DNA from: Promethearchaeota archaeon | GTDB lineage: Archaea > Asgardarchaeota > Lokiarchaeia > Sigyniarchaeales > SOKP01 | NCBI GenBank assembly: GCA_016839765.1 | Contig: JAEOTP010000061.1 | Span: 1-54,797, forward strand | Direction: 5' to 3' | Length of the DNA stretch: 54,797 nt | Shown here: positions 32,410 through 54,797 of the stretch, in pieces | How the letters are laid out: every line of letters begins with the position of its first letter | How positions within the stretch are numbered: position 1 is the stretch's first letter | Position numbers and translations under genes: made by a program | Notes under the pieces: generated by a model | The model's input: only the letters and a program-made list of their open reading frames with translations | Told to the model about the DNA's origin: nothing | Databases searched by the model: none

Positions 32410-33474
32410 TTGAGTGCCTTTCCTAAGTTTGATGATGTAGGTAGTTTTCCGTTACCTGAAAATATTACTAATGAAAGTTTCAATAGATTTTATTGGATAG
32501 CCTATAAAGCCTTTGCGAATAAAGAGAATATTTTTACCAACAAAGGAATTCAAATACATTTAATTGAACCAATGCTTAATTCTTTCAAATTAAAATTAAA
32601 GGCTGGAGTTGAAGTTATAAACTACCCTCAACATATAGATATGTACACACAATTCTTACAACCTATAGCAGACTTTGAAATTGAGCCCAATTTGATCGAT
32701 CCAAATAAAGCCTATATCCCTGAAGTCTTTATAATAGAAAACTTCGCCAAGCAATATTATGAAGAAACGGGTGGATGCTTACAAATTAAGGTATGTGTTA
32801 CTGGACCTATTGATTTATACATTAAGCGCTTCAAATTTTCTCTCTATCCAGATATGGTAATGAATTTTGCAAAATCTATAAATTCAATTTTAAAAAACTC
32901 TGTAATGTATACCAAATATATAAATACATCAATTATTTCTATTGATGAACCTTCATTTGGTTATGTTGATATTGTGAACATAACTGAAGAAGATTTAATT
33001 AAAATATATAATAAATCTTTGGAGGGTATTAAGAATAATAATAACACTACTCAAATGCATATCCACACTCTTAATAGGGCTGACATTCCCCTTAAAACTA
33101 AATACTTCGATGTCATAACTTGTGAATATGCTGCTAATAAATCTAACAAAATCTCAGAAAAACTCTTAGAGCAATACGATAAATTTATTAGAGTTGGTAT
33201 AACCAGAACAAATATTGACCATATTATCGCAGAAGCGATAGATAATGGCGCTAAATGGGATGAGTTAAACACAATCAATGGTATGATAAGTTTAATTGAT
33301 TCAAAAGAGAAAATTAAAAAAAACCTTTTAGATGCGATACAGCTCTATGGGGATCGATTAAAATTTATTGGACCAGATTGCGGATTGGGAGGTTGGCGTA
33401 TTCCTGAAGTAGCGTTTGAATTATTACTCCGAACTAAAGAAGTCATTGAAGAAGTTAAAAAAGATAAAAATTGA
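32410..33474 (+). CDS. Core (single-barrel) methionine synthase, MesC-like
   Basis: FDDVGSFPLP, VTGP, SIDEPS, MHIH, CEY, GPDCGLGG of the MetE catalytic barrel; no folate-binding N-terminal barrel. Confidence 0.75.
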   Translation: MSAFPKFDDVGSFPLPENITNESFNRFYWIAYKAFANKENIFTNKGIQIHLIEPMLNSFKLKLKAGVEVINYPQHIDMYTQFLQPIADFEIEPNLIDPNKAYIPEVFIIENFAKQYYEETGGCLQIKVCVTGPIDLYIKRFKFSLYPDMVMNFAKSINSILKNSVMYTKYINTSIISIDEPSFGYVDIVNITEEDLIKIYNKSLEGIKNNNNTTQMHIHTLNRADIPLKTKYFDVITCEYAANKSNKISEKLLEQYDKFIRVGITRTNIDHIIAEAIDNGAKWDELNTINGMISLIDSKEKIKKNLLDAIQLYGDRLKFIGPDCGLGGWRIPEVAFELLLRTKEVIEEVKKDKN

Positions 33475-36690: not shown

Positions 36691-36726
36691 TTTTTTATAT
36701 TAATAATATCAAAAGGTGAGATAAAT

Positions 36727-37554
36727 ATAGAAATTGAGGAAGAGGATGAAAAGTTTCAAATTATAAGTTTAGATTCTTTGTTAGAAATATTAGGTAATCC
36801 TACAAGAAGAGCAATATTAACAAAACTAGCAAAAGTTCCACATTCTGCCCCTGAATTAGCAAGTTCATTAGGGATCTCAAGACAAGCAGTTCACAGTCAA
36901 TTATCTCTCCTTCAAAGTAACAACATCATTGAAGCTATTGAATCAGCTGAAACTAGAGGAGATAAATATAGAGTAAAAAGTAATATTTCAGTTAATATCG
37001 ATATAACTCCTGATTATTATAATATTAAATATAATACTAGTACGCCTGATAGTGAATCAGAGATGGTTGAATTTAAGGATATGAGTTGGTCAATTAATTA
37101 TTCCAAAATTAAGACTCCTAATAATAAGATTAAATATTTAGGAGATGAGATGAGGAAAGTTGAGAAAAGTATAGTCGATTTAGAAAATAAAAGAAAAGTA
37201 TTTCTTACTCAGAAAAAATGCTTAATATTAGAAATAAAAAATCTGATGCATGGTCAATTTAAGGAGAAATTAGAAACAATGCTAAGAAGTAAATATGAAG
37301 ATATTAAAGATAAAAATTTAAGAGCAAGTTTAAATCTAACTGAAGAAATTCTAACTACCATGTTCTTTAAACCAGAGCGATATTTTAAAGGATTTCGTAT
37401 TGATGTATTGATGGATGATTTATTTTTCTCAGATATGGATAAATATGAACGTAATAGGCGATTTGGTTCACTCTACAGACCATTATTAGAAGATTTATCA
37501 CGAATGATGGGTTTTTTACGTGAGGATGAGGATGATTGGTTTTTAGATTTTTAA
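36727..37554 (+). CDS. ArsR-type wHTH/coiled-coil regulator, Phr/HSR1-like heat-shock repressor
   Basis: ILGNPTRRAIL..LA..P..APELASSLGISRQAV.SQL, then a coiled coil; third gene of the hsp20-cdc48 operon; start inferred at ATA 36727 after GGTGAG (TTG 36778 is the alternative). Confidence 0.8.
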   Translation: MEIEEEDEKFQIISLDSLLEILGNPTRRAILTKLAKVPHSAPELASSLGISRQAVHSQLSLLQSNNIIEAIESAETRGDKYRVKSNISVNIDITPDYYNIKYNTSTPDSESEMVEFKDMSWSINYSKIKTPNNKIKYLGDEMRKVEKSIVDLENKRKVFLTQKKCLILEIKNLMHGQFKEKLETMLRSKYEDIKDKNLRASLNLTEEILTTMFFKPERYFKGFRIDVLMDDLFFSDMDKYERNRRFGSLYRPLLEDLSRMMGFLREDEDDWFLDF

Positions 37555-37586
37555 AGTATTTTTATATTAAATAAATGAGGTATTTT

Positions 37587-38093
37587 ATGGAAATCCAAGA
37601 ATTTAAAAAACAAATACCTGAAATTTTTGAAAAAGTTAAAACAGATGTCAGAAAAATTTTAAAACGTCATAGAGCGGGGTTAAGCCTTGGTTTAGTAGAA
37701 GGGGGTTTTTTAGAAGAAGAAGGTTTTATAGGTTTTATAGGTGGTGCGCACTTTTATCCCGGCCATGTAATTGTGATGACTAAATCTCCGTTAAAAATGA
37801 TCCTAGAGTCACAACCTTATGAAATTATATGGGCTTATACATATCATATCCTTCTACATGAATATATTCACTCATTGGATATAATTAATGAATATCAGTG
37901 CAGAGAAATTACTCTAAAAGTAACTGAAGAAGTTTTTAAGGACGTTAACCATCCCGCTATGATTCTTGCCAAGAATGGAATTGGAGCTTTTTTTCCTAAC
38001 TTAAGACCAACTGACGTCCCTCCAGAAATACGGCCTGAAGATATTGAATATGTGCATGGATTTGATAGGGAAAGCCAAACTTATTTTTCTTAA
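37587..38093 (+). CDS. Small zincin-like (HExxH) protein
   Basis: ILLHEYIHSL; GAGGT RBS before ATG 37587. Confidence 0.7.
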   Translation: MEIQEFKKQIPEIFEKVKTDVRKILKRHRAGLSLGLVEGGFLEEEGFIGFIGGAHFYPGHVIVMTKSPLKMILESQPYEIIWAYTYHILLHEYIHSLDIINEYQCREITLKVTEEVFKDVNHPAMILAKNGIGAFFPNLRPTDVPPEIRPEDIEYVHGFDRESQTYFS

Positions 38094-38189
38094 CCTCCTT
38101 TTTTTCAATATTAAGAAGTTAAAATTATTTAATCAGCATAATTTAGATTAATTAGAATATTAATCAACTGAATAAATGGTAGAATTAAA

Positions 38190-39257
38190 ATTTCGAATGC
38201 TTCAGAAAAAGAGGACATAGAAAGTCAAGAAGAGACCATTGAAAAAAATCTTGAAATTGTACCCAATCAGTTAATTCTTAATTGGAAATATAAAGATGTT
38301 AATAAAAAACTTACTTATGATATTAAAAAATGCATAGGTTGTAGTTTATGTAAATTAGTGTGTCCTGTGGATGCAATAGAATTAGGACCAATTCCTGAAA
38401 TTGCCCAAAATATTTTAGATGACTCCAATCCTAAACTTTTCATTGATCATGAGAAATGTTGTTATTGTATGTTATGTGTAATAGTGTGTCCTACTGATGC
38501 ATTTCATGAAAATATTGAACCCGAAGGTCAAATATCTTTAGATGAATTTCCCTCGATAGGAAAATTTTATCTAATTGATATGGATAAATGCATTGAAGAT
38601 AAAAATAATGAAATATGCAAATTATGCCTAAGCGTTCGTGACAGGAATGCTATAAAGGAATATTTTCAGATTGAAAAAGATTGTCCTACTAAATGTTTTC
38701 ATATAAAATCTCCAATCCAAGGAGAAGTAATTATTAAAAAAAATATGCTTCATAAATGCGATCCACAGGGTTGCAAAGCTTGTGTTAATATTTGCCCTAC
38801 CGAATCTTTTTTTATACCAGAAAGAGCTGAAGATGTTATGAAGTATGGGAAAATAGCCTGTAATGAAGATGATTGCTTTTATTGCGGAGCATGTGTAAAT
38901 TCCTGCCCCGATGATTTGATTATTATAAATAGAAAAGAGATTGAAATAAAAGATCCCAAGAAAAAAGGAAATTACCCATGGATTCAAGGATGGATTAATA
39001 ATATTAAAGACATATTGAGAAGAAGATTAATTGAAGGAAAAGAACAGATTGAAATCCCTATTATTGAGGAAGAAATTAAGAAAGTAAAAGAAAAAGTCGA
39101 AGAAGAGATTCCTCAATTATCAAAAAAAGATAGAGAAAAACTAGCAGAATTAAATAGTAAAATTCAAGAATTTCTTAAATCTTCGAAAATTAGATATTGG
39201 ATTAAAGATAAAAAAATAGATAAAATTATACAAGAATTGAAAAAATTTTTAAAGTAA
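38190..39257 (+). CDS. Polyferredoxin (FwdF/MvhB-like multi-[4Fe-4S] protein)
   Basis: CIGCSLC...CP (upstream of the GTG call), CCYCMLC...CP, C...C..C...CP, CFYCGAC...CP; start inferred at ATT 38190. Confidence 0.85.
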   Translation: MSNASEKEDIESQEETIEKNLEIVPNQLILNWKYKDVNKKLTYDIKKCIGCSLCKLVCPVDAIELGPIPEIAQNILDDSNPKLFIDHEKCCYCMLCVIVCPTDAFHENIEPEGQISLDEFPSIGKFYLIDMDKCIEDKNNEICKLCLSVRDRNAIKEYFQIEKDCPTKCFHIKSPIQGEVIIKKNMLHKCDPQGCKACVNICPTESFFIPERAEDVMKYGKIACNEDDCFYCGACVNSCPDDLIIINRKEIEIKDPKKKGNYPWIQGWINNIKDILRRRLIEGKEQIEIPIIEEEIKKVKEKVEEEIPQLSKKDREKLAELNSKIQEFLKSSKIRYWIKDKKIDKIIQELKKFLK

Positions 39258-39400
39258 ATATAACATTCTTTACAAAAAAGTAAAACCCAAAAGACGATTA
39301 AAAATTGTTTTTTGAAAAATTCAATGATTAGCATTCTAAGAAAATAACTCGTATTTTATTAATTATTGGTGTTAGCTTCTTTATAATTATCATTCCTTTA

Positions 39401-39856
39401 ATGATAGTATTTTATGAATTATCAAATTATCCAGTAAGTTTCTTTGAAAGTCAACTCTCATTTAGTAGTGCAGTAATTAAATCTCATTTTAGTATTATGA
39501 ATGCTGAGGAATTAAATTATTATTTCATCTGGGTAATAGTTGATTATGGATTCATGCTAGGATTTGGCATCATATATTTTAGCCTGGATTTAATTATAGC
39601 TAGAAAATTTAATGAAAGTTCGAGGTGGAGAAAATCAGGATATATAGGTGTTTTTTTTGGAATATTATATTTTTGTTGTGATGCTATTGAAAATATCTTT
39701 ATTTTTTCAATGCTTAATGATCCTTTAGGTTTTCCTGACATATTAGCTATAACTCATTCTTGGATTGCTTTAGTGAAATTCATTTTTAACTTTTCTTCTG
39801 GTTTTTGGGTAATTGCTGCGTTAATTATACTATTTTTTAGAAGAAAATCAAAATGA
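39401..39856 (+). CDS. Membrane protein, probably N-terminally truncated by an in-frame TAG at 39329
   Basis: QLSFS, DYGFM, CDAIEN..I..ML, ALVKF membrane motifs; an additional TM helix is encoded in frame upstream of the ATG. Confidence 0.6.
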   Translation: MIVFYELSNYPVSFFESQLSFSSAVIKSHFSIMNAEELNYYFIWVIVDYGFMLGFGIIYFSLDLIIARKFNESSRWRKSGYIGVFFGILYFCCDAIENIFIFSMLNDPLGFPDILAITHSWIALVKFIFNFSSGFWVIAALIILFFRRKSK

Positions 39857-39940
39857 AGATTCTAAAATGAAATGAAATAAAGGAAAGAAGTAAAAGTATT
39901 TTCTTAGTTTATAATATAAGAATGAATAAAAAGAAGAAAA

Positions 39941-40726
39941 CTAATAAGAAAAAACTCTATTCGAAATAATTAATGAAACTATACTAGGTATAAACATTAA
40001 GGGAAAAACAATGAAAAATAAATTTAATGAAATAGCTATAGAAGGATTTAAAGAAAATAAAATAAAAATAAAAGGAAGAAATAACCAAAATATAAACAAT
40101 TTCCATTTAGTTTCTAAATGTGAGAAGGGTTTAAATAATAAATTGAAATTTCTGGAAATCAAGTAATAAAAAAAAATTAGGGCTAAAAATCCAGGGATTA
40201 AAAACACCCAATTAGAAATGTTGGTGTAAATTGTTATTAATCTAATATCACCGAAATTTAAAAGACTTCCAACTAATAGATAACCTGTTGAGTTCATAAA
40301 CGCCCAAAATCCATACCAGAATAAAATATGAAGTGCAGTGTATGCTATGCTTGACTTTATTGTCCTTTTTCTTACCACGTAATATATAGCAATATTACAA
40401 GAAATAGCAGCTATAAGACAAGCAAGGATACCTCCACCCGCCATTAATGCTCTTGAAATGTTACTTGCTCCCATAGGAAAAGAAACAAATGCAAACCCAA
40501 ATTCTAATGGCCAAATCCAAGATACGTAATAATTTATTGGCTGACCTCCAACCAAAATACCTATCCCACAATGACCTAGGAACTCATGCGTCCATTCTGA
40601 TACAAACTTCATGAGAAAGGAGATAGGAAATATGCTTATAATTAAAAATAATAGCGTTCTCCGTTTTGAATTACCAGAATTAAACCATAAAACATCTAAA
40701 CCTTTAGATTCCAAAATAATACACAC
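39941..40726 (-). CDS. Multi-TM membrane protein with a metalloprotease-like HExxGH motif (M50-like)
   Basis: WTHEFLGH inside a hydrophobic segment, AGG, and FGD as possible third ligand. Confidence 0.6.
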   Translation of the reverse strand: MCIILESKGLDVLWFNSGNSKRRTLLFLIISIFPISFLMKFVSEWTHEFLGHCGIGILVGGQPINYYVSWIWPLEFGFAFVSFPMGASNISRALMAGGGILACLIAAISCNIAIYYVVRKRTIKSSIAYTALHILFWYGFWAFMNSTGYLLVGSLLNFGDIRLITIYTNISNWVFLIPGFLALIFFYYLISRNFNLLFKPFSHLETKWKLFIFWLFLPFIFILFSLNPSIAISLNLFFIVFPLMFIPSIVSLIISNRVFSY

Positions 40727-40930
40727 TAATAATTTTATACTTACTAAATTGTATAATAAATAGAAGGTTTAAAAACCTTTAATACATCTTTTTTGGATAA
40801 AAACACAATTATAATGGGATAGTTATGATTTATTTGCTGATTTTCTGGAAAATAGTTATTGTTTATATATTTTACACTAGAAATATGTCAAATCAATTGA
40901 TTTTATATTAATCATTAGATATGAGTAACA

Positions 40931-41218
40931 ATGATTCTAAAATTAAAGACAAAATCTAACAGAAAGACAAATCAAAATCAAATCTTTATCTGGATACAAA
41001 GACATAAGGATTTTAAGAAAGACATTCAACAAATATTACAATTCTTTAAGGATCAAATTGTGGTCTCTAAAAAAAGAAAATTATTACCTTATTATAGGAT
41101 AACTTCTGATAACCCCGCTATCCTATTATCTCTTTTCTCAACAATACAAGATTTAATCCCTGAAATTTATTTCAAAGTGGAAAATTCAGTAGAAATTGAA
41201 GAATCCGTAAATTATTAA
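40931..41218 (+). CDS. Hypothetical protein
   Basis: 95-aa ORF with ATG and GAG RBS-like element. Confidence 0.6.
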   Translation: MILKLKTKSNRKTNQNQIFIWIQRHKDFKKDIQQILQFFKDQIVVSKKRKLLPYYRITSDNPAILLSLFSTIQDLIPEIYFKVENSVEIEESVNY

Positions 41219-41242
41219 ATTAATTTCTTGACTTGTAAAATA

Positions 41243-41343
41243 TGGGAGGAGGGGGATTTGAACCCCCGGCCCCTTGGTCCCAAACCAAGATTTACGCCGT
41301 AGAAGAACCTCTACAGAATCATACCAGGCTAGACCACCCTCCC
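41243..41343 (-). tRNA. tRNA-Pro(UGG) with a 27-nt intron at non-canonical position 25/26
   Basis: Acceptor GGGAGGG/TCCTCCC-A, anticodon arm CTTGG-TTTGGGA-CCAAG, T-arm GGGGG-TTCAAAT-CCCCC; intron 41291-41317 flanked by a bulge-helix-bulge; CCA not encoded. Confidence 0.95.
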
Positions 41344-41542
41344 ATTAAGAAACTGGTCTCAAATTTCAAAGAGAATATTTAATTTATCTCTTATTTTGAA
41401 GATAAAATAAAAGTTAAATAACTTCTCTTATTCATAGGTTGGTATAGATATGAAAAATTAATTAAATAAAAAAATTTTTCCGTTAATCATTGAATTTTAT
41501 ATCAGTTTTATTTTCAATTTTAAAATATTAATCATATTCAAG

Positions 41543-42100
41543 ATGAAAAAAAGAATTTTATTACTAAAAATTGGTCAAGTTGATAAGATAATTCTAGTAA
41601 ATTTGAAGAAAAATTTAGAATGGGTATTTAAGGATTTTCAAATAAAAGTTAGAATACTACCTAAAGAACTTGATTTAAACAATTCTTATTATCATCCAGA
41701 AAAAAGAAAATATAATGCAGATCGAATTATTGAAGGGATGAACGAATATCTATTAGATTATGATTTTTTTCGGGTTTTAGGAATAGTGAAGGAAGATATT
41801 TATTCAGGAACTTATAATTTCATATTTGGATGCGCTGAGAGAATAATTGCTAAAATCGCCTTAATTTCAGTGATTCGATTGAACGAAATTTTTTATAATA
41901 GAACTAAAGATAATTCTCTTTTTGAAAAAAGAATCTTAAGAGAAGCAATACATGAACTTGGTCATACTTTTGGTTTATTCCATTGTCAAGATTATTGCGT
42001 TATGAAATTTTCTAATAGTTTAATGGAAGCTGATAATAAACCAATTAGATTTTGTAAAAATTGCTTAAAAAAAGTGGAAGTATTTCTTAGTAAAACTTAA
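41543..42100 (+). CDS. amzA: Archaemetzincin (M54 peptidase)
   Basis: HELGHTFGLFHC...CVM.FSNS...FC..C signature; NFIFG. Confidence 0.93.
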   Translation: MKKRILLLKIGQVDKIILVNLKKNLEWVFKDFQIKVRILPKELDLNNSYYHPEKRKYNADRIIEGMNEYLLDYDFFRVLGIVKEDIYSGTYNFIFGCAERIIAKIALISVIRLNEIFYNRTKDNSLFEKRILREAIHELGHTFGLFHCQDYCVMKFSNSLMEADNKPIRFCKNCLKKVEVFLSKT

Positions 42101-42105
42101 TAAAA

Positions 42106-43110
42106 TCAACCATATCTATTCTTAAACTTGTCATACAAGGATTCACTAACTTTTAGAATATATTTATGATTCTTTACTAGTTTTCTTAATTCAAAAGGTA
42201 TATTTTCTAACCCAAAATAGGCTCCTGCTAAACTTCCTCCTATAGCACCAACAGTATCACTATCTCCACCTGCAGTTGCCAATTCAAAGATACATTCTTC
42301 GAATGAATCTAATCTGTGTAAAAATATGAAGATTGCGCAAGCAACTGTACTCATAGTATAGGGATGGACAAATGCTTTCCCAAAGTATTGTTCAATAAAA
42401 TAGGGAGACTTAACACCGATTTGTGAAAACTTAATCAATCCCGCATCAACTGAAATATTCAAATTCTTTTTCACTTTACGAAGGATCTCAATAAATTCTT
42501 CCCAAATATCATCTTGAGAATTAGAAATTGAAGAAATAATTACATCAAAGAACTCGTCAATAGAAAATCCTGTATTTGGGGATTTTTTTATTAAATAAGC
42601 GATAGCTCTCGCCATCACTATTGCTCCTGCTGAAGCTGCAGGGTGAGAATGAGTAATTATGCTAGATTTTAATGCGACAGTTTTTAATGCCTTTAAATTA
42701 TTACAATAAAACAAACCCACAGGAGATATTCTCATTGCTGTACCGTTTCCGCCAGAATTAGAGGCTGCTTTTTGCCAAGGAATTCCATATCTTAATTTAT
42801 GAATTGAAATCAGACATCCATACCCCGGACCAATAGGTGGGTCATCTAACCATTTTATATACTCTCTAATTAAATTATCCAAATTAAACCCCGAGCTTTG
42901 AATGAGCGCCTCAGCAGTGTGTAACGTTAATTGAGTGTCATCTGTATAAGTATTGAATAACTTCTTATGACTTTTAATAAATTCTTTAAAATCAGTAAAA
43001 TAAGAATAAATATCTTCTCGTAAAACCCCTTCAAAAGGATGCCCTAATGTATCACCTATAGCAACTCCAAATAGAGTCCCTGAGAATTTATCTAAATAAT
43101 CATTTGGCAT
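42106..43110 (-). CDS. ADP-ribosylglycohydrolase (DraG/ARH family)
   Basis: GVAIGDTLG, YTDDTQ, GNGTAMRISP, ITHSH, GGDSDTVGAIGG. Confidence 0.93.
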   Translation of the reverse strand: MPNDYLDKFSGTLFGVAIGDTLGHPFEGVLREDIYSYFTDFKEFIKSHKKLFNTYTDDTQLTLHTAEALIQSSGFNLDNLIREYIKWLDDPPIGPGYGCLISIHKLRYGIPWQKAASNSGGNGTAMRISPVGLFYCNNLKALKTVALKSSIITHSHPAASAGAIVMARAIAYLIKKSPNTGFSIDEFFDVIISSISNSQDDIWEEFIEILRKVKKNLNISVDAGLIKFSQIGVKSPYFIEQYFGKAFVHPYTMSTVACAIFIFLHRLDSFEECIFELATAGGDSDTVGAIGGSLAGAYFGLENIPFELRKLVKNHKYILKVSESLYDKFKNRYG

Positions 43111-43151
43111 TACGTTTTAAAAGGGTATAATGAGTATTTAATTTTGTTGGT

Positions 43152-43520
43152 TTATGCTAAATTCTTATAGATCTTTTTAATTTCAGTTATTAAATCAGTA
43201 ACACTATAAGGTTTATCTAAAAAACTTCTCGCTCCAATAGAAAGAGCTTCTTGCTTGATGCTATTATCAGCACTCGTGAAAATAATTTTTGATTTGTCAT
43301 TAATTTTTAAGATTTGTTTTGTTGCTTCAATTCCATTCTTAATTGGCATTCGATAGTCCATTAAAACAATATCCGGCTTTTTTGGAAATGAATTAAATAA
43401 TGAAACTGCCTCTTGTCCATTTTTTGCTTCCCCTATCACTCGATATCCAGACATTCCTAATACTTTTTTAAATAGCAATCTAAGTGATTGATCATCCTCA
43501 ACGATAAAAACTGAAGCTAT
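43152..43520 (-). CDS. Single-domain (CheY-like) response regulator
   Basis: VFIVEDD acidic pocket (upstream of the TTG call), phosphoacceptor LMDYRMP, TSA, KP; start inferred at ATA 43520. Confidence 0.92.
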   Translation of the reverse strand: MASVFIVEDDQSLRLLFKKVLGMSGYRVIGEAKNGQEAVSLFNSFPKKPDIVLMDYRMPIKNGIEATKQILKINDKSKIIFTSADNSIKQEALSIGARSFLDKPYSVTDLITEIKKIYKNLA

Positions 43521-43525
43521 TTTGT

Positions 43526-45796
43526 TTACACCTCTGGAATTAATACAACAAAATTACTTCCTTTTGAATAGTCTCCTTTAACTTTATCCTCGACCCATAT
43601 TTTTCCTTTATAAGTTGTTAAAATTTTTCTTACAAGTGATAATCCAATCCCCATTCCACTAACGGTTCTATCTACATTATCTACTCTCTGAAATATGCTC
43701 CCTTTATTAGTATCAGGTATTCCAATTCCGCTGTCTTCAAATTCAAATTTAACAAATTTTAAGCCATCTTTTTGAAGTTTTGAAACTTTGATCTTTACGT
43801 CAACAGGATAATTTTGAGTATACTTTACAGCATTGATTAAAATATTTTCAAAAACATCTATTAGAAGCTCATTTGCTTGAACTGTTATTGTTTTATAAGG
43901 GTTTTCAATATCTAAATTGATTTTTTTATCTTGGAGACTTTTTAATAAAAAATCTATTGATTGATTCAATACTTCAATGGCTTCTATGGGTTGGGTGGAA
44001 ATTTTTACTTCTTCCAATCTTGACAATTTTCGGGTATTTGAGATTAAATTAGCCGCCCTACCAACCTGTTGTTTAGATATTTTTAACATTTGTTTTAATT
44101 CATTTAAATCTTTCTCTTCCTCCATATAAAGGAGACATAATTCAACAGAAGATAAGATGTTTTGAAGAATGTTGTTTATATCATGGGCAATTAAGTCCTT
44201 ATAAAAATTAGATCTATTAAAAGCTTCCCGATATTTTTTTTCAGACTTTTTTAATTGCTTTTCAGCATTCATTTGTTCTGTAATGTCTATTGACATTATG
44301 AAGTCGGCTGGTCTTCCTTTATAATTAATTGTTTTTGAAAAACTTTCAAGCCATCTAAGTTCTCCATCTTTCCTTATTATGCGATACTTATATTGTTCAA
44401 TTACACCTTTTTCTCCAATCTCTTTTTTTCTAGCTTGGTCCAGAACAAAATCTCTATCATCAGGATGTATGAGCTTAACAAATTCATACGGTTTCCAATT
44501 TTTTATTTCTTCGGGTGAATATCCATTAACTTTTGGTACTCTTTCATTAAAATATTTAAAAATGCCATCTTGTATGATATAAATACTCATAAATGATTGT
44601 TCGGCAATTGTCCTGAACTTTTCCTCTGATTCTTTTAAGGCCTCTTCTGCCTTCTTGCGTTCAGTTATATCAGTAAAAGTCACGGCAAAATAACCCTTCT
44701 TAGGAGAATATCCTGAAACTTTATACCAACGATCAAATACCTCTGAATAATCCTCAACTGTTATTGGAATTCCTGTTAATCCAACATTTCCAAATTTGCC
44801 AATCCAATCTGCAGAATCATTCTCTGTTCCTGGAATTGCTTCAGTTACAATCTTTCCAATTAGATCTTCTTTTTTTATACCTGTAAGTCTTTCAAAAGCA
44901 GGATTCACTTCAATATATCTATAATCAACTGGTTTATTGTTATCATCAACAATGACCTCATGAAGAGCAAATCCTGCGTTCATATTTTCAAACAAAGAAC
45001 GATATTTTTCTTCAGATTTTTTTAATTTTTGTTCGGCAATTTTCCTTTTCGTAATATCACGAACAAGACCATAAAAACCAACCTTATTTCCTTTAGAATC
45101 GTATAATAAATCAATTGTTCCTTCAAAATAGATTAATTTATTCTTTTTTGTTATTACTTTAGCAACTCCTGTTGGAGGACGGGGAATCCCTGTTTTATAA
45201 ACTTGGTTGAACATATTGAACAAAACTTCGGATGACATTGTATCGTATAGTAAGCGAAAATTCTTTCCTATTAATTCTTCCTTTGAATATCCCATTATTT
45301 TACAATACTCAACATTGGCATAAACAAAATTTCCCATAAGGTCAGTTTCAAAATATCCTTCCATCATATTTTCGAGAATGTTTCGATATTTCACTTCAGA
45401 TTCTTTTAATTTTTGCTCAGCTACTTTTCTTTCAGTTATATCCCGAGTAATTTCCACTACTCCACTAATTTTGTTTTTATCATCAAAAACAGGATATCCC
45501 TCAACAAACCATAGCCTTCCATCTGGAGTAATCATTTCCTTAGAGTTTAATTCTCCAAATTTAAGTGCTTTTAATACTGGACATTCTTCGCACGGTTCGT
45601 TTCGCTCTTGCCATAAGTTATAGCAATTTTTTCCAATTAATTGTTCAGGAGTTAAATTAAGTGAATCAGCCGCAGTTTTATTTGCCCAAATAATTTTGAA
45701 GTCTTTATCATAATAAACAATATGTTCAGAAATGGTTTCTAAAACGTTTTTATAAATATATTCTAATCGTTTTGATAAGGGTTCTCTTTCTGTCAA
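43526..45796 (-). CDS. Cytoplasmic sensor histidine kinase with four PAS/PAC domains
   Basis: Repeated DITE/DITK PAC ends, H-box AHDINN, N-box NILINAVKY, DSGIGI, GMGIGL; no TM helix. Confidence 0.95.
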   Translation of the reverse strand: MTEREPLSKRLEYIYKNVLETISEHIVYYDKDFKIIWANKTAADSLNLTPEQLIGKNCYNLWQERNEPCEECPVLKALKFGELNSKEMITPDGRLWFVEGYPVFDDKNKISGVVEITRDITERKVAEQKLKESEVKYRNILENMMEGYFETDLMGNFVYANVEYCKIMGYSKEELIGKNFRLLYDTMSSEVLFNMFNQVYKTGIPRPPTGVAKVITKKNKLIYFEGTIDLLYDSKGNKVGFYGLVRDITKRKIAEQKLKKSEEKYRSLFENMNAGFALHEVIVDDNNKPVDYRYIEVNPAFERLTGIKKEDLIGKIVTEAIPGTENDSADWIGKFGNVGLTGIPITVEDYSEVFDRWYKVSGYSPKKGYFAVTFTDITERKKAEEALKESEEKFRTIAEQSFMSIYIIQDGIFKYFNERVPKVNGYSPEEIKNWKPYEFVKLIHPDDRDFVLDQARKKEIGEKGVIEQYKYRIIRKDGELRWLESFSKTINYKGRPADFIMSIDITEQMNAEKQLKKSEKKYREAFNRSNFYKDLIAHDINNILQNILSSVELCLLYMEEEKDLNELKQMLKISKQQVGRAANLISNTRKLSRLEEVKISTQPIEAIEVLNQSIDFLLKSLQDKKINLDIENPYKTITVQANELLIDVFENILINAVKYTQNYPVDVKIKVSKLQKDGLKFVKFEFEDSGIGIPDTNKGSIFQRVDNVDRTVSGMGIGLSLVRKILTTYKGKIWVEDKVKGDYSKGSNFVVLIPEV

Positions 45797-46009
45797 TATA
45801 CCCGAATCTGCTAAAAATTTATTATATTATAAAATTTATTTACTTTTCATATAAACCAATAAAAAAATTTGTATTTAATATTATTTTTAACCAAAAAGGT
45901 GCAGTTAAATAAGTTTTTTTTCAAATTGAATTATTTTCAACAATACTTATATAAATTTGTTAACAATATTTATTTTAATCAAATACTATATTGAGTTTGA
46001 TAATTAAAT

Positions 46010-46909
46010 ATGTTTAATTTAGAAAAATTAAGAAATTCCATAACTGCATTAATTACTCCTTTTAATGAAGATTATACTATTGATCAAGATAAATATCGAG
46101 AATTTATACGTTTCCAAATAGAAAATGAATGTCAACTATTAACTATGGGCACAACGGGAGAATCTGCAACCCTTTCCCATGAGGAACATCATATCGCAAT
46201 GGATATTGCAATTGATGAGGCTAAAAAAAGTGGAAAGAACCCATTTGTCTTAGCAGGTACTGGAAGCAATTCAACAAAAGAAGCAATCTCTCTTTGCCAA
46301 TATGCTGAAAAAGCAGGCGCTGATGGTTGCTTAGTTGTTGTACCTTATTATAATAAACCAGCACAACATTCATTAATTGATCATTTTTCAGCAGTCGCGG
46401 ACTCAGTTTCTTTACCTATTATTTTATATAACGTTCCCAGTCGTACCGGGCGCAATTTAGAACCAGAAACTGTATCTAAATTAGCATATTCGAAAGATAA
46501 TATTGTTGGTATTAAGTGTGCAAGCGGAAATATTGATCAAATAACGAAAGTTATCAAAACTACACCAGAAGATTTTATTGTTCTTAGTGGTGATGACGGA
46601 ATGACATATCATATAATGGCACTTGGAGGCAAAGGTGTAATAAGTGTAGCTTCTAATATCATACCTGCTCAATTAGTGGAATTCACTAACTTTATGTTAA
46701 ATGGAGAATGGGATAAGGCTCGCAATAAACAATTAGAATTGTTTGATTTATTTAAAGTTTTATTTATCGAAACAAATCCCGGACCTGTTAAATATGCTGC
46801 AGATTTAATGGGTTTAATGGATAGTAGAATGAGATTACCACTAACACCACCATTAAAAGAGAACCAGAAAAAAATTAAACAAGTCTTAAAAGATCTAAAT
46901 ATAATTTAA
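46010..46909 (+). CDS. dapA: 4-hydroxy-tetrahydrodipicolinate synthase
   Basis: ALITPF, GTTGES, GTGSNST, PYYNKP, LYNVPSRTG, Schiff-base GIK, SGDD, ETNPGPVK. Confidence 0.95.
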   Translation: MFNLEKLRNSITALITPFNEDYTIDQDKYREFIRFQIENECQLLTMGTTGESATLSHEEHHIAMDIAIDEAKKSGKNPFVLAGTGSNSTKEAISLCQYAEKAGADGCLVVVPYYNKPAQHSLIDHFSAVADSVSLPIILYNVPSRTGRNLEPETVSKLAYSKDNIVGIKCASGNIDQITKVIKTTPEDFIVLSGDDGMTYHIMALGGKGVISVASNIIPAQLVEFTNFMLNGEWDKARNKQLELFDLFKVLFIETNPGPVKYAADLMGLMDSRMRLPLTPPLKENQKKIKQVLKDLNII

Positions 46910-46935
46910 GAAAATTATAGTTGGAGGGTACATAT

Positions 46936-47757
46936 TTGATTAAATTACTAGTTCTGGGACCCACTGGGGTTATGGGAAAATTAATTAGTGAATTAGCTCT
47001 GAAAGACGATGAGATAGATATTGTTGCAGCTTGTGATATCATTAATCTTGGTGATAAACTTGAATCTATTGTAGCTGTAAAAGATTCCAAGAATATCATA
47101 ATTACTGATGTAAATAACCTACAAAAAGTAATTGATCAAACCAAACCTGAAGTAGCAGTTGATTTTACTGTAGCTGCAGCAACAGAAAAAAATTGTCTAA
47201 TTTGTGCAAAGAATGGAATTCGTTGTGTAATTGGAACAACTGCATTATCCCAAGAATTTCTTAACGAATTTGAAAATTTGGTGAAGAATTATCAAGTTCC
47301 TTCGGTTATTTCTCCAAACATGGCGACAGGCGTAAATATTTTATTCAAAACGGCATCAACTTTAACTAATTATTTAAATGATTGGGACATAGAGGTAATA
47401 GAGGCACATCATCATAGAAAAATTGATGCTCCAAGTGGAACAGCTTTAAAAATAGGCCAAATTATAAGTAATAGTTTGGGTTCTGATTTTGAGCAAATCG
47501 TAAAATTTGGTCGAAATCGCGGTCCTAATAAGAGATTGATTGGCGGAAAAAATGAATTAGGTTTTCACTCAATACGAGCTGGAGATATCGTGGGGGATCA
47601 TATTATTTTGTATGCTGGACCTGGCGAAAGAATTGAACTCAAGCATCAAGCACATAGTAGATATTGCTTTGCTGAGGGAGCTATCAAAGCAATAAAATTC
47701 ATAACACAGGTTAAGGAAGCTAAAATTTATAGCACAAGTGAAGTATTAGGATTTTGA
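46936..47757 (+). CDS. dapB: 4-hydroxy-tetrahydrodipicolinate reductase
   Basis: G.TG.MG, VDFT, IGTT, SPNMATGVN, EAHH..KIDAPSGTA, RAGDIVGDH; GGAGGG RBS before TTG 46936. Confidence 0.95.
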   Translation: MIKLLVLGPTGVMGKLISELALKDDEIDIVAACDIINLGDKLESIVAVKDSKNIIITDVNNLQKVIDQTKPEVAVDFTVAAATEKNCLICAKNGIRCVIGTTALSQEFLNEFENLVKNYQVPSVISPNMATGVNILFKTASTLTNYLNDWDIEVIEAHHHRKIDAPSGTALKIGQIISNSLGSDFEQIVKFGRNRGPNKRLIGGKNELGFHSIRAGDIVGDHIILYAGPGERIELKHQAHSRYCFAEGAIKAIKFITQVKEAKIYSTSEVLGF

Positions 47758-47990
47758 AGATAACTTTATGAATCGATTTCATTATAAAGAGAGATAAAAT
47801 TATAAAACTTTTCAGAGCAGATCAGTTTTTTCATCAATCTGAATAGCTAGATTTCATAACGCCAACTCTTCATCTAAATAATTAAAGGGTATCCTGTCCT
47901 TAATCATTCCTTATTTTATAATTCTATCTCATAATAATAAAGATTAATGCAATTTTTAACTTTTCTCATAAACATTCGTTAATTTAAGTA

Positions 47991-49313
47991 TCACTTCAAG
48001 TGATCTGGGATGATTTGGTTTTTTAATAAATCTTCAAAGGTTTCAGCTTCTCGAATTTTAAAAGGTTGACCATTACTAATTAAAATTTCAGCTGGACGGG
48101 GTCTAGAATTATAGTTACTGCTCATTGCATAACCATATGCTCCAGTATCAAGGATGGTAAGATAATCTCCTTCTTTTAATTCAGGTAATTCTCTTTCTTT
48201 TCCGAGAATATCTCCAGATTCGCAAATAGGTCCAGCTATATCATATTTTAACATTTTTTTTCCCCTTATCTTATTACATGCCATAATATGATGATAAGCT
48301 CCATACATAGTAGGCCGAATCAAAATATTAAATCCCGCATCTACTCCTGCAAATAATTTATATCCGTTATCCTTAATCGTATTTATCTGAGTTAGCAATA
48401 CACATGATTCAGCAACTAAAAACCTTCCCGGTTCTATTTTAAAAACCGGTTCCCCTAAGTTTTCAACATATATTAATTTTTTAAAAGGTTTTACTACAAT
48501 CTCTTTATATTTTTCAAGATCTAAGGGTTTCTCATTAGCATGATAAGGTATTCCTAAACCTCCTCCGAAATCTATAAATTCAAAATTAATCTTTAGGGAG
48601 CTTGCTAATTTCTTAATTATAGAAAAATACTTCTCAGCTGCTTTTTCAAAATTATATGGGTTATTAATTCCAGAACCAATATGTTGATGAATACCAAATC
48701 TCTCAAAGCCAAAATGTTTAGCTCTTTTGTAGGCTTCTACTACTTGGTGTTCTAAAATCCCAAACTTGACTTCCTTTCCGGCAGTGATATCATGAATATG
48801 ATGTCCTGCTCCAAACTCAGGATTTATTCTAAATGAGATAGTTTTTTTTTCTTTCCCTAAACTTTTATAAATTTTCACCAATCGGTCCAATTGACTAATA
48901 CTATCCAAATTAATTAAAACATCATTCTTAACAGCAAATTCGAAATCATTATCAGTAAACATATTTCCAGTATAAATAATTCTTTCAGGTGCGATTCCTG
49001 CTTTAAAACAAGTATAAATTTCACCTTGAGAAGTGCAATCAAAAAAAGCTCCCTCTGTATTTAAAATTTTTAAAATGGAAATGTTTGAGTTCGCTTTAAC
49101 TGCATAGTGTATATGATTTTTCTTATATTCTGAATTGAGAACTTTTTTTAGAGTTCTATATTTTTCTCGAATTATTTGTTCACTTATAACATAAATAGGA
49201 GTACCGTATTTTTTCGAAAGTTCTATTATGCTTACATCATTAAAAAATAGATTTCCATCTCGATATTCTAAGCCCTTATAATTTAACCAATCTATGTTTT
49301 CCATCAAAACCAT
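47991..49313 (-). CDS. lysA: Diaminopimelate decarboxylase
   Basis: YAVKAN PLP lysine, KFGI, HIGS, DFGGGLG, EPGR, GPICESGD, GAYG..MSSNYN.RPRP. Confidence 0.96.
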   Translation of the reverse strand: MVLMENIDWLNYKGLEYRDGNLFFNDVSIIELSKKYGTPIYVISEQIIREKYRTLKKVLNSEYKKNHIHYAVKANSNISILKILNTEGAFFDCTSQGEIYTCFKAGIAPERIIYTGNMFTDNDFEFAVKNDVLINLDSISQLDRLVKIYKSLGKEKKTISFRINPEFGAGHHIHDITAGKEVKFGILEHQVVEAYKRAKHFGFERFGIHQHIGSGINNPYNFEKAAEKYFSIIKKLASSLKINFEFIDFGGGLGIPYHANEKPLDLEKYKEIVVKPFKKLIYVENLGEPVFKIEPGRFLVAESCVLLTQINTIKDNGYKLFAGVDAGFNILIRPTMYGAYHHIMACNKIRGKKMLKYDIAGPICESGDILGKERELPELKEGDYLTILDTGAYGYAMSSNYNSRPRPAEILISNGQPFKIREAETFEDLLKNQIIPDHLK

Positions 49314-49344
49314 CTAATTATTTTACTAAATAAATTTAAATACA

Positions 49345-50217
49345 TTAAAATTCAATTTTTTCAATGAATCCCTTAAAAACTTTAACAATTGGACCTTCCA
49401 TAAAGACATTTTTGCCATTATAAGTAATAATTAAATCACCCCCATCATTGTGAACTGTCACTGGTACATTTTTATCAAATAATCCCAACATCGTACCTGC
49501 CACTACAGCAGCACATGTTCCAGTACCACATGAAAGAGTAATACCTGCTCCTCTTTCAAAAACTCTTAATCTTGCTTCTCTCTTTGAAAGAACTTTTACA
49601 AATTCAACATTGGTTTTATTCGGGAAATGTTCATTAGATTCTATAGCAGCACCATATTTATTTAAATCATTATCGCTAATAACATTTTGAGTAAAAATTA
49701 CAGCATGCGGATTTCCCATAGAAACAGCTGTGAAATTAAATATTTTATCTAAAATTACGATTTGCTCATTTACACATCTATCAACAATATCATCTAATTC
49801 GACCGGAATGCTTTCACAATCTAATATTGGAGAACCCATATCCACTTTAACAGAAATTACTTTATTACCTTCTACCTTTAATTTATTAATGATTATACCC
49901 TTAGGCGTTTCAATTTTTATAGCTTCATTTTTTAAAATATCATTTTCATAAATATACTTTGAAAAACATCTAATACCATTACCACACATCTCCGCTTCTG
50001 AACCATCTGGATTAAACATCCTCATTCTTATATCTGCCTTTTCTGAATCGCATACAAATAATAAGCCATCGGCTCCAACGGAAAAATGAGGTTGACATAA
50101 TAATTTAGCTAAATCCGCTTTCTTGTCATCAGGTATTTTCCATTTGAGGTTATTTATCACAACATAATCATTTCCGAGTCCATGCTGTTTTTCAAAATCT
50201 AAATTTTCAAGAATCAT
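49345..50217 (-). CDS. dapF: Diaminopimelate epimerase
   Basis: HGLGND, GADG, NPDGSEAEMCGNGIRC, MGNPH, NVEF, ERGAGITLSCGTG. Confidence 0.96.
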   Translation of the reverse strand: MILENLDFEKQHGLGNDYVVINNLKWKIPDDKKADLAKLLCQPHFSVGADGLLFVCDSEKADIRMRMFNPDGSEAEMCGNGIRCFSKYIYENDILKNEAIKIETPKGIIINKLKVEGNKVISVKVDMGSPILDCESIPVELDDIVDRCVNEQIVILDKIFNFTAVSMGNPHAVIFTQNVISDNDLNKYGAAIESNEHFPNKTNVEFVKVLSKREARLRVFERGAGITLSCGTGTCAAVVAGTMLGLFDKNVPVTVHNDGGDLIITYNGKNVFMEGPIVKVFKGFIEKIEF

Positions 50218-50401
50218 TTTTATTTATTTATAATGAATAATTTCAACTTTTATATGTCTTACTTCAAATAATAATAAGATTAAAGCTTCACTGAAAAAAA
50301 TTTCTCTTTTGGGTTATCATTAAAATAGTTTCTGAAAAACCTAAATAAAGCTTCATATTATTTTATTATATTCAATTTGAAATATCTTTAATATTACCAT
50401 T

Positions 50402-50911
50402 ATGAAAAAGAAAATTCTTATTTTACCATTATTAGCTCTTTTATTGTTTATTTGGGCGCCTTCAGTACAAGGATATGAATACTCTGATAATATTAATGAA
50501 GGTATTTCCGTTTATTATCTAACAGCTCTGGATGTGGGAGAGAGTATTGAAGTAAATGTAACCCACTTAGGGGATGGTAATTTTAATTTTACGCTCTTCC
50601 TTTTTGATGAACGACCTTTAGAGTCATATGTTAATTTCGATAAAACCCTTAACAAAGAAATCTTTAACGTTGCTATTAATTATAATTTAGATGATAACCC
50701 TTATCTATATTTTAACGCTTCTGAATCCAAAATTTACTATTTTCAGCTTATATTGCTTGATAATGGTCCAGATACATTTTTAGTTTATAGTGATAAGGAA
50801 TTAACTCGGTATTACCTCCCTATAATTCCAGGATATAACTTGCTTTTATTGGGTCTTATGATTCCTTTAGTTTCTGGATTATTAGTGCTCAAATGTAAGA
50901 AGAAACTTTAA
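50402..50911 (+). CDS. Secreted surface protein with a C-terminal IPGY-TM-basic sorting signal (Loki-CTERM/PGF-CTERM-like)
   Basis: Signal peptide MKKKILILPLLALLL..., C-terminus IPGY + hydrophobic helix + KCKKKL. Confidence 0.75.
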   Translation: MKKKILILPLLALLLFIWAPSVQGYEYSDNINEGISVYYLTALDVGESIEVNVTHLGDGNFNFTLFLFDERPLESYVNFDKTLNKEIFNVAINYNLDDNPYLYFNASESKIYYFQLILLDNGPDTFLVYSDKELTRYYLPIIPGYNLLLLGLMIPLVSGLLVLKCKKKL

Positions 50912-50927
50912 AATAAATGTACTTTTT

Positions 50928-50960
50928 TAATCGAATAATAAATAATCGAATAATAAATAA
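50928..50960. repeat. Tandem 15-bp duplication TAATCGAATAATAAA x2
   Basis: Exact copies at 50928-50942 and 50943-50957 between convergent genes. Confidence 0.7.
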
Positions 50961-50990
50961 ATTATATATTCCTCAACTTTTTAATTAATT

Positions 50991-53392
50991 TCATTCCGAA
51001 AAAATTAGTGTAAAGGTATCCTTTAATTTGCTATAAAATTCGTTTTCTATTAAGCGATATTTCATTAATGCTTGAATATCTGATATCTCAAATTCTAACT
51101 CGCTTGGTAGATTAGTTTCTTTTAAATAGATAGCAATGAATTTTTTTTTCTTTTTCAGTGCAAAACTAATCTCTTTTCTTACCATCTCTGAGACGATGAT
51201 TTGAGGAGTTATAAAAACTAGAAATACGCGACTTCGCTCTAAATTTTGAACAATTGATTTTTTCCAGTTTTCACTGATGGGAATTCCTTCATCATACCAA
51301 ATATTTATACCGTTTTTATTAAGATAGTCAATTATCGGATAAACTTGAAGTCTGTCTGTGTGAGAATAACTGACAAAAACAAACGGTTCCTCCCCTTTAT
51401 ATGCCTTAAATGGCATCTGAAATTGCTGAGGATCCGAAAGAAAACTTTCAGAAATTAATTCCTCAAGAGAAGCCGTCTCATTTACTTTTATCTCTATATT
51501 CTTTTTTCCTGCATCTTTTAGTATTTTCATAATATTAGGATCTTTTCTAACTGTTTCAGAAAAGTGGATTAATTTCTGCCGAGCGCTATAGGACTGCCCT
51601 TGGAAAATATAACAAATGGAAAAAGAATCGACTGGTGTTATAAGCACTGTGTGTTGACCGAATTTCACTCGATCAAATGATTCAGAAAGAATCTGGTCGC
51701 AAAATGTATTGCATGAGGATAGAAATTCACTAAAATAGGTGCTATCAATTGTTAAATCAGCAGTAAACGGATTAGATAATAAAATTTTCCCATCTTTTGA
51801 CATAACAGTAAGCAGTACTGGCTGCTCAGCTTCCAATTTGGGGGATTTCACTAATCTCTTTTTTACCATCCTCTCCATTTGTTCATTTAAGCGTGATAAT
51901 TCTATACGTTCAGCCAAGGATGCTTTCGATTCTTTTAAATTCTCCCAGATTTCTAGTTGTTTAAGTAATTCATCATGCTCATTTGAGATTTTAATTACTA
52001 GCAATTTAATTCCATATCTTTCAGCAATCTGCTGGCCTTGAGTAAATAATCGTCGAGCTTCTTTCAAATCCAACGATAACAAAGCCAACTTTGCTTGTAA
52101 AAGGTAAGTTTCTCCAATAAGCCAATACGAATGCGATTTTTCAGCAAGTTCTAACAGTTGACCAAGGAATTGGTTTAACTCATCCAACACAATTAGGTCA
52201 TTAGTCATGCGTAACTCAGTTAGGAGCAATTCACATAAATTAATTAATGCTGTATACCTAACATCATGAGTTAAATTCTCATTTTCAAGGAGTTGTATTA
52301 ATATTTCTTCAGCTTTACCTCGATCGCGAGCTCTAAGACTTGTTTTCAATAATAGAGCCTTATCAAGAAGATGCATTAAATCCATTTCCTTGTTTTTTAA
52401 TTGACTGTTCAATCGCTCCAAATTGTTAAGACTTTGCTGCGCTCGCTCAAGATATCCCCTTTCAATTAATATTTGAATTAAAAAGTCGTGGTTATTAGCT
52501 AGGTTTCTTAAAGCTCCTAAACCACGGTTTAGTCCCATAGCTTGTTCTATACACTCTAACGCACGATCCAAATCTCCGTTGTTTTTATAATCAATAGATA
52601 AATTGTTAAGAATATCTGCCATACCATATTTATTGTCAAGTTCCTTGAAAAGTTCTAAACCTTGTTCATTAGTTTTTATAGAACGATCTGCTTCCCCTAG
52701 AGAACTAGTTATAAGCGCCATAACCTGAAAACTAGATGCGATGTAATATTTTTTACGACTTTCTCTAGCAAGAGATACACTTCGCTCGGAATATTTTAAG
52801 GCACGATCCATTTCACCTTTAAAAATCAATAGATTCCATGCCATCTGATCAAGAGATTCGGAAATTTCATGTCGAATCCCCAATTCTTCTCGCATTACTA
52901 AGCTGTGCTCCAAATGTTTTAATGCCAGATCTGCGTCATCTGGATCTCTTCTGTAATTGTAAAAATATCCTTTTATAAAAGCTAAATAAGCTTCTCTTTG
53001 CTTGTAGGCTCTTTTTAATTCATGTGGAATTGTTTTTATTAATTCTTCTCCATGCTTAATCAAATAAAAAGCCTTATCAAATTTATTAAGCCTTACTAAT
53101 GTATGCGTCATTATAAGTAAGTTGTCGACTATAAAGAGATTATTTTCCCGTTCTCTGCTTTCTTTATACATGGGTTCAGTATGTTTAATAAGCTCTTTGA
53201 GCTTCCCTTGCCAAAAAAAAATTTGACATTGAAGTAAATGACAGGATGCTTTATCATGATGGTTGAGCCCTTCCTTCTGCTCGAAATTATTCAAGAGTGT
53301 GAGAGCCTCATCGAGTTTACCTTCATCAATGAGTTTTTCTGCTCGAATTACTTCTTCAGGGTTTTTTTTTCTATTAATTGTTCTTCGTCCAT
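50991..53392 (-). CDS. TPR-repeat protein with a longin-like domain and C-terminal TIR domain; 5' end frameshifted at an A9 tract
   Basis: Multiple TPRs, alpha/beta segment EQPVLL...ICYIFQGQSY, TIR FVFVSYSH.D...IWYD...EMVRKEI; ATG 53392 is one base out of frame with the long ORF. Confidence 0.85.
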
Positions 53393-53814
53393 ATTTAGTA
53401 TATACCTTTGTTATTCATCGTAAGAGAGATAAGATAAATTATGGCTTAGCTATTTCTTTTTTGATTTTTCTCCAATTTCAACTATTTTTTCTTTTTCCTT
53501 ATATGGTTTTGCAGGTTTTAAATAATCATTTGGAACATCGCACACCTAACATGCGTTTTTTAAATTAATCTCTTGTTTTTAGAATATATAGTAATAATAT
53601 TATTAGGTGATTTATAAATCATGTATGACGAAAATCGTCGCTGTTAAATTTAAATCCTTTTTCCTTTTTCGTAATTTCAATCTCATTTCTTGTCTGAGAA
53701 TTAACAAAAACCATGTAATACGTTGATCCTTGATCGATTTCCATCACATAATTTTAAATTCAATTCATCAATCCCCTAACTATCAAATTATACAGAAAAT
53801 TAAAGTGAGATAAA

Positions 53815-54797
53815 ATTTCATTTGAAGAGATTAGTAAAAAATTTGCGGAATTAATGAAAGAGACAGAAGAAATCGAACTGAAAGATGTAGAGCTATTTGC
53901 TGAATATTTAGAGTTCCAAATGCTCCCAAGTCTCGTCCAAGCAGCCGCTCAAGCAGCTCTTCCAGGCATCGGGAAAGCTGAATGGACAGCAACTAAATTT
54001 TCTCTTGATGTTTCTTATCCGGGAACAATCCAAACGGTTGAATTTGTACGATCAAATGGTAAAAAGGCAATGATTGGAGGAGAAATGGTACCTCCTTTCT
54101 ATAATTTCCTTGGACTCGATAAAAGAAATCCTCTACCTCCACTTGTTACTTACGATGTATTTGATATGGGAGATAAAATGATACTTCCAAAACCCATTAA
54201 GCTAGAATATAAGGATGTTTTAGGACATCCTGCTGAATGGGCTAAATTTGCTGTTGATAAATTTGGAGCAGAATGTGTGACTTTTCACTCTCTGGGAATT
54301 GATCCTGGAACTCTTGATTGGCCAGTTTCAAAATCGAAAGAATTTTTTGAAGATATACTACAAGCGGTTGATGTGCCAGTAATCATTGGTTGTTCTGGAA
54401 ATAAAAAGAAAGATGTAGAAATGTTTAAAATACTTGCTGAGGTTTCTGAAGCGGAAGTTTTAATGCTTTCAGCGGCGGATAAGGCGACCTGGGAGGAAAT
54501 AATCCCCTTGGCTGTTAAATATGATCACAATTGTTTACTTTGGACAAGTTTGGATTTAAATAATCAAATCAAGATGAATAAAGATGCAATAGAATTAGGA
54601 TTACCAAGGAACCGAATAGTAATGGACCCAACCTGCGCCACTTTGGGCTATGGGCTTGAATATAGTTTCAGTATTTATCAAAGAATGCGAATTGCAGGTC
54701 TATTAGGTGAAGAAGATTTAGCTTATCCGATTAGTGGAGGTACAACAAATGCCTGGGGTGCTCGTGAGGCATGGATGAGCGAAAAGCAAGCACCTGA
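53815..54797 (+). CDS. cdhD: CO dehydrogenase/acetyl-CoA synthase delta subunit (small corrinoid Fe-S subunit), 3'-partial
   Basis: Not in the ORF track because it runs off the window; translation gives IGGE..PPFY.F, LQAVDVPVIIGCSGN..KD, IVMDPT..LGYGLEYS, NAWGAREAWM; start ATT 53815 or ATG 53854. Confidence 0.92.
   Translation, partial: MSFEEISKKFAELMKETEEIELKDVELFAEYLEFQMLPSLVQAAAQAALPGIGKAEWTATKFSLDVSYPGTIQTVEFVRSNGKKAMIGGEMVPPFYNFLGLDKRNPLPPLVTYDVFDMGDKMILPKPIKLEYKDVLGHPAEWAKFAVDKFGAECVTFHSLGIDPGTLDWPVSKSKEFFEDILQAVDVPVIIGCSGNKKKDVEMFKILAEVSEAEVLMLSAADKATWEEIIPLAVKYDHNCLLWTSLDLNNQIKMNKDAIELGLPRNRIVMDPTCATLGYGLEYSFSIYQRMRIAGLLGEEDLAYPISGGTTNAWGAREAWMSEKQAP

Follow-up and report, generated by a model that had tools for sequence, protein, structure and literature searches.

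ATT, ATA and ATC as probable Shine–Dalgarno-dependent start codons in a family of Lokiarchaeia

We analysed a 54,797-nucleotide stretch of Lokiarchaeia DNA (the window), contig C40 of the metagenome-assembled genome G000 (3.32 Mb, 96% complete, GC content 29.7%), in which several genes appear to begin at an isoleucine codon behind a ribosome-binding site. Marine sediment metagenomes give the best sequence matches to the window. Here ATH (AUH in mRNA) stands for ATT, ATA or ATC, and NTG for ATG, GTG or TTG. The original prediction had described four genes with a ribosome-binding site, a spacer and an in-frame ATA or ATT, and all four layouts are present. On the forward strand, the Shine–Dalgarno (SD) word GGTGAG (36715..36720) precedes the ATA start of a 275-amino-acid regulator (36727..37554), and GGTAGA (38178..38183), a G-rich SD-like word retained in orthologs, precedes the ATT start of a 355-amino-acid FwdF-like polyferredoxin recognized by its domain matches (38190..39257). 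On the same strand GTGAG (53805..53809), read from the sequence and its orthologs and containing the in-frame TGA at 53806-08, leads the ATT start of cdhD, which codes for the ACDS delta subunit and is truncated at the contig end (53815..54797; TIGR00381 match above cut-off, from residue 9). On the reverse strand, GAGGTG (43529..43534, by sequence reading) stands before the ATA start of a 122-amino-acid stand-alone receiver domain (43152..43520), whose PF00072 match begins at residue 4. The 3' tail of the 16S rRNA, located on contig C56, ends in GATCACCTCCT, so that the GGTGA-type words are true SD sequences; GGTGAG of the regulator pairs with this tail. The match behind the label 'Phr-like' proposed for the regulator is weak (46 bits against a cut-off of 320); the protein is an ArsR/HTH_20-type regulator.

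At all four sites an in-frame stop lies 2-12 codons upstream, with no in-frame NTG between the stop and the ATA or ATT. For the regulator, the nearest NTG is a TTG at codon 18 (17 residues lost) and the first ATG comes only at codon 113, while the first ATG of cdhD is at codon 14 (13 residues lost). The polyferredoxin frame opens behind a TGA at 38169, and its first NTG, a GTG at codon 57 (56 residues lost), would leave the protein without Cys48/51/54 of the first 4Fe-4S motif. In the receiver, initiation at the first NTG (TTG, codon 15, 14 residues lost) would cost beta-1 and the EDD acidic pocket. The conserved N-terminal motifs of these two proteins are thus out of reach of any NTG, as had been predicted. 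A genome-wide start model, described below, chose all four sites unaided, with posteriors of 0.97 for the regulator, 0.78 for the polyferredoxin, 0.82 for the receiver and 0.74 for cdhD.

A misread ATG at these sites had been raised as a possible refutation. Contigs from other samples, belonging to the study that also includes the probable source, span the four sites with 0-1 differences and carry identical start codons (X3, 36500-36828, 36799-38420 and 53139-54100; X4, 37422-38420; X2, 43308-43853). The expectation that standard gene callers miss such starts was borne out in the window, where the public protein entries for the contig give 258 amino acids for the regulator, not 275, and 299 for the polyferredoxin, not 355, the latter without the three cysteines. 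It does not hold throughout, as some NCBI records of relatives do begin at ATT (polyferredoxin MFX0180779.1, 355 amino acids).

Alignment of orthologs placed the ATA or ATT codons in the column occupied by ATG or TTG in relatives. The regulator has ATA in 4 genomes and ATG or TTG in 26 others, mostly in the same column. Among 73 cdhD loci collected with tblastn and aligned from residue 1, the start codon is ATT in 61, ATG in 7 and ATA in 5, with no valine or leucine codon; nearly all have an in-frame stop 1-8 codons upstream, and the FastTree tree implies 6 switches between ATH and ATG. The polyferredoxin carries ATT, ATC or ATA in 30/30 loci of the genus despite variable flanking residues. 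In the receiver homologs, a set that mixes orthologs and paralogs, the start column holds ATG, ATA, TTG, ATT, ATC or ACG, plus three odd cases. These three (L109, L111 and L112) have TTA, TTT and TTA where close homologs, including a paralog on contig C67 of G000, have a TTG start led by the same SD; they may be starts with two mismatches, result from a shift of the start, or reflect decay.

The same pattern was found when ATH calls made on G000 alone were read in G018, a genome of the same genus. In 20 of 21 cases the position held ATH (15) or ATG (5), the remaining one was offset by one codon, and none held a valine or leucine codon. Internal isoleucine codons, the baseline, align to ATG in 1.4% of cases and to GTH/TTA/CTH in 15%, which gives P about 9e-6 for at least five ATG among 21. 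The segments between the ATH and the first NTG have 73% amino acid identity, with differences at codon positions 1/2/3 of 0.22/0.13/0.45, compared with 75% and 0.20/0.11/0.45 for the gene body and 21% and 0.52/0.53/0.51 for upstream DNA. They evolve as coding sequence, like gene bodies and unlike upstream DNA. A separate case is an Rpo10-like gene for an RNA polymerase subunit (contig C51, about position 94400, reverse strand), which starts with ATT in G000 and ATA in G018.

The genome-wide model, fitted by expectation-maximization (EM), combined coding signal, an SD matrix, spacing and a free frequency for all 61 codons, and was seeded with ATG only. It placed 64% of the 2674 genes of G000 in an SD class, in which start frequencies were ATG 0.664, TTG 0.149, ATT 0.063, ATA 0.045, GTG 0.040, ATC 0.015 and CTG 0.006, with ACG and AAG at 0.003 and all remaining codons at or below 0.002. 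The class without an SD was 92% ATG with almost no ATH, so ATH start use depends on an SD. Weighted by posterior, ATH starts account for 8.0% of genes (about 213 of 2674), and 102 calls exceed 0.8. The next NTG in these calls lies at a median of 25 codons, and at 40 or more in 31/102. Their SD-start spacing peaks at 6-7 nucleotides, identical to that of ATG. ATT, ATA and ATC stand at 109:78:27 among starts genome-wide and at 56:36:14 per 1000 in internal isoleucine usage. Simpler statistics were less informative: a count of in-frame versus out-of-frame SD words gave a weak signal for ATT (P=3.5e-5) and none for ATA (P=0.28), weak because it is diluted by many internal isoleucine codons, and conditioning on ATG in a relative did not separate ATH starts from internal methionines, the noise coming from shadow open reading frames and one-codon offsets.

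We then compared other genomes with the SD parameters held fixed, because free EM was unstable on single contigs (ATH 0.4-21%). The ATH share of the SD class was 12.3% in G018 and 8.0% in G105, from another genus of the family. The two single-contig genomes of the sister family, with GC of 30-33% and an identical SD consensus, showed 2.0% (G044) and 0.1% (G055) in runs of 200 kb each (about 150 genes per control). A free fit to Clostridium pSOL1 (GC 31%) gave 1.0%, and 39/40 same-size subsamples of G000 gave at least 3.8%. The genome-wide scan suggested by the original prediction thus found an excess of SD-led ATH starts, about 100 of them confident, and together with the ortholog columns it supports the relaxed start-codon selection proposed there. 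Relaxation of the lineage as a whole stood only in part: it applies within the family, the sister family reaches only 0-2%, and the excess looks limited to one family. As a side observation, the SD-led class takes in about 64-72% of genes in G000 and G044 under a loose class definition (of the genes starting with ATG, 32% have an SD of -4 kcal/mol or stronger); reviews describe SD sequences as rare in Lokiarchaea (PMC7531240, PMC12993045).

Inspection of the initiation factors, also suggested by the original prediction, revealed an ATH start in the gene for aIF1 itself (contig C91:35178-35528, reverse strand). Here an in-frame stop and an SD-like word precede an ATT that lies six codons before the zinc knuckle, and the first NTG of the gene comes 34 codons past the first cysteine. 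The start is ATH in 20/20 family copies examined (ATT 15, ATA 3, ATC 2). In other Asgard archaea aIF1 starts with ATG, GTG, TTG, ATA or CTG, the sister-family genomes having TTG (G044) and ATG (G055). Pfam scores of the family's aIF1 proteins rank among the lowest in the phylum, and two aIF1 copies occur in each of G007, G114 and G178.

From the sequence comparisons, the ATA, ATT and ATC sites are very probably true initiation sites. The best explanation, to which we give a probability of roughly 60%, is a lax, SD-anchored start selection with feedback through aIF1. Pairing of the SD with the 16S tail would set the register and bring AUU, AUA or AUC, and less often CUG or ACG, into the P site. 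There a normal initiator tRNA (CAU) would pair with bases one and two of the codon, a mismatch at the third base would be tolerated, and the protein would still begin with methionine. P-site proofreading would be less strict here than in the sister family. Being AUU-started itself, aIF1 may serve as a feedback set-point in the manner of bacterial IF3, and would settle at a level that still admits AUU. Genes with a strong SD could then drift from ATG to ATH; the ATT:ATA:ATC ratio at starts does mirror internal isoleucine usage. The whole chain, that AUU, AUA and AUC serve as routine SD-dependent starts for about 200 genes of one Asgard family, core metabolic and transcription genes among them, with output tied to an AUU-started aIF1, is put forward tentatively, with slightly less than an even chance of being right in every part.

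Several observations weigh against this explanation. The SDs of the ATH calls are stronger (median -7.8 vs -2.9 kcal/mol), a measure that is partly circular, and the controls are small samples. At least 2/102 confident calls are false: these are HdrA-like genes (C33:15296 and C59:56032, forward strand) whose N-termini continue across the in-frame TGA of a C-R-U-G-V-N-I motif, where selenocysteine read-through mimics an SD with an ATT start. Some lineages that showed no genome-wide excess, or were not modelled for one, also start aIF1 at a near-cognate codon, and feedback alone therefore cannot explain the difference between the families. A check of the machinery, which covered loss and gross features and, for 16S, the 3' end present in the assembly, turned up no lesion: aIF1 retains loop 1 (RKWGR), the initiator tRNA at C91:11313 is canonical with A1-U72, three G-C pairs and CAU, uS9 terminates in arginine as normal, and aIF2-beta, two aIF1A and KsgA are all present and ATG-started. 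No simple loss in the machinery accounts for the ATH starts. Beside these results, we note that the initiator tRNA gene (C91:11313-11450) lies about 1.1 kb upstream of aIF2-beta and has two introns, in the anticodon loop and the T arm, that many G000 tRNAs carry introns overlooked by ARAGORN, and that the aIF1A paralogs, both ATG-started, are at C47:4912 and C63:901.

Alternatively, the starts could be real but selected for weakness under ordinary stringency, each AUH codon keeping its gene low or tied to the level of aIF1, which would amount to many cases of the infC/pcnB/ccpN type. Isoleucine codons were exchanged 4 times in the cdhD start column, against 14-28 times at 13 internal isoleucine columns, and ATT was retained in 10/11 pairs compared with 62% internally (P about 0.04). 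This stickiness of ATT counts against pure drift, and some ATH sites are probably tuned. In S. aureus, AUA and AUU starts yield about 10-30% of AUG and come with extended SDs (PMC13009471). As the whole account, selection for weak starts is nevertheless less likely, given that the codon proportions at starts follow internal usage as under drift, that starts toggle repeatedly to ATG, that probably well-expressed genes (cdhD, Rpo10) are included and that the sister family has few. It is compatible with lax selection under aIF1 feedback, and both can hold together.

We consider it far less probable that translation begins at the downstream NTG, or through coupling, read-through or frameshift, the isoleucine codons being internal or untranslated. 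The stop of the upstream kinase (43528-26) falls in the SD-start spacer of the receiver, 5 nucleotides before its start, and translational coupling from kinase to receiver is possible. Two genome-wide calls are indeed selenocysteine read-through, and cdhD and the regulator would lose just 13-17 residues. Against this, in-frame stops lie 1-12 codons before the ATH sites, the N-terminal extensions show the divergence pattern of coding sequence and the ATG of orthologs occupies the same column as ATH. Coupling does not apply to cdhD, since the gene upstream of it is divergent, and a downstream start would deprive the polyferredoxin of three cysteine ligands.

More improbable still is reassignment of AUA to methionine, as in mitochondria, or editing of the mRNA to AUG. 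In its favour, TiaS (PF08489) had no match in 91/91 genomes of the order (it was matched in 73/121 genomes of the phylum and had no match in five other Asgard families), and G000 has a tRNA whose anticodon is TAT. Yet internal ATA aligns to isoleucine in 69% of cases and to methionine in 2%, ATT is the commonest ATH start, and ATC, CTG and ACG occur too, so that no single edit fits all. Absence of TiaS as the cause of ATH starts was rejected as an order-wide trait, common to the sister family without its ATH excess. The tRNA with the TAT anticodon is intron-split (C34:6686-6837, reverse strand), and AUA is probably decoded by tRNA-Ile(UAU) in G000; this tRNA is rare in prokaryotes (PMC8879553). 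Errors of assembly or gene decay, to be considered in any metagenome-assembled genome, are hardly credible here and are refuted by the ortholog sets, with identical letters in other samples and intact frames in dozens of separately assembled genomes.

TTG starts are frequent in the window, in agreement with the original prediction. They were called for an MBL-fold hydrolase (16660..17682, reverse strand) and a methionine synthase-like protein with ATG in a relative (32410..33474, forward), both with profile matches, for a membrane protein (17826..18530, reverse; posterior 0.99), for the PAS histidine kinase, supported by a domain match (43526..45796, reverse; 0.78), for dapB, whose TIGR00036 match begins at residue 1 (46936..47757, forward), and at 40714. 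A protein disulfide oxidoreductase (6984..7622, forward) has a probable TTG start, with a posterior of only 0.49 and ATG in the same column of a relative. A TPR-TIR protein (frame 50991-53414, reverse strand) has a candidate ATT start at 53378 (posterior 0.70, weak SD) and a paralog on contig C63 that is 84% identical. A second cdhD-like copy (C64:1-858, 88% identity) and a fragment (C45:10188-10310), both at contig ends, may represent a paralog, strain mixture or contamination.

AUH starts have been regarded as rare exceptions in prokaryotes, with two confirmed in E. coli (10.1101/063800). The closest parallels are infC, E. coli pcnB and S. aureus cvfC1, ccpN and citZ, which have AUU or AUA after a strong SD (PMC4705826, PMC13009471, 10.1101/063800). 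Like aIF1 here, infC encodes a fidelity factor and has a near-cognate start. In those systems the factor is IF3 and 2-4 genes per genome are concerned, whereas here archaeal aIF1/aIF2 would act and about 200 genes are expected, about 100 of them confident, roughly fifty times the scale. IF3 is autoregulated via the AUU of infC and eIF1 via poor AUG context, and aIF1 from S. solfataricus selects against AUU in vitro (PMC4705826); a fidelity role of the factor is also described in PMC6237735. The eIF1 loop shares a homologous factor with a weak start able to respond to its own level, but uses an AUG in poor context during scanning rather than an SD-placed non-AUG codon (PMC4705826). Mitochondria likewise use AUA and AUU starts routinely in A+T-rich genomes (PMC11775629), though on leaderless mRNAs and with internal AUA read as methionine, whereas here starts are SD-led and AUA stays isoleucine. 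Kariarchaeaceae atubA is also an Asgard gene with a ribosome-binding site, an ATT start and a truncated database protein, but it is a single gene from another Asgard class, called rare and reported without a genome-wide claim (PMC13394414). Ribo-seq in Haloferax volcanii detected near-cognate initiation at about 30% of 160 alternative sites, which the authors set aside (PMC7261190), while the sites here are primary starts of conserved genes. We found no genome-wide report of ATH starts, subscription papers lying outside our coverage, and one Asgard gene in print (PMC13394414). What appears to be new is the genome-wide scale and the apparent family limit suggested by composition-matched controls.

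NCBI table 11 lists ATT, ATC, ATA and CTG as alternative initiators, rare exceptions; the same codons are used here, but ATT and ATA each equal or exceed GTG. To our knowledge, AUH starts on about 8% of genes would be the highest rate outside organelles. The free-living lineage concerned lies in the Asgard archaea, relatives of eukaryotes, which have strict AUG selection, and its contrast with a sister family of like GC and SD motif offers a natural pair for finding the determinants of start-codon stringency. The proteins of the family are often truncated in databases, with consequences for domain calls, predicted structures and expression in other hosts. Finally, the AUU start of aIF1 suggests feedback of the IF3/eIF1 type in archaea; if true, start-codon stringency in the archaeal group nearest to eukaryotes would be under a feedback connecting the loops of IF3 and eIF1.

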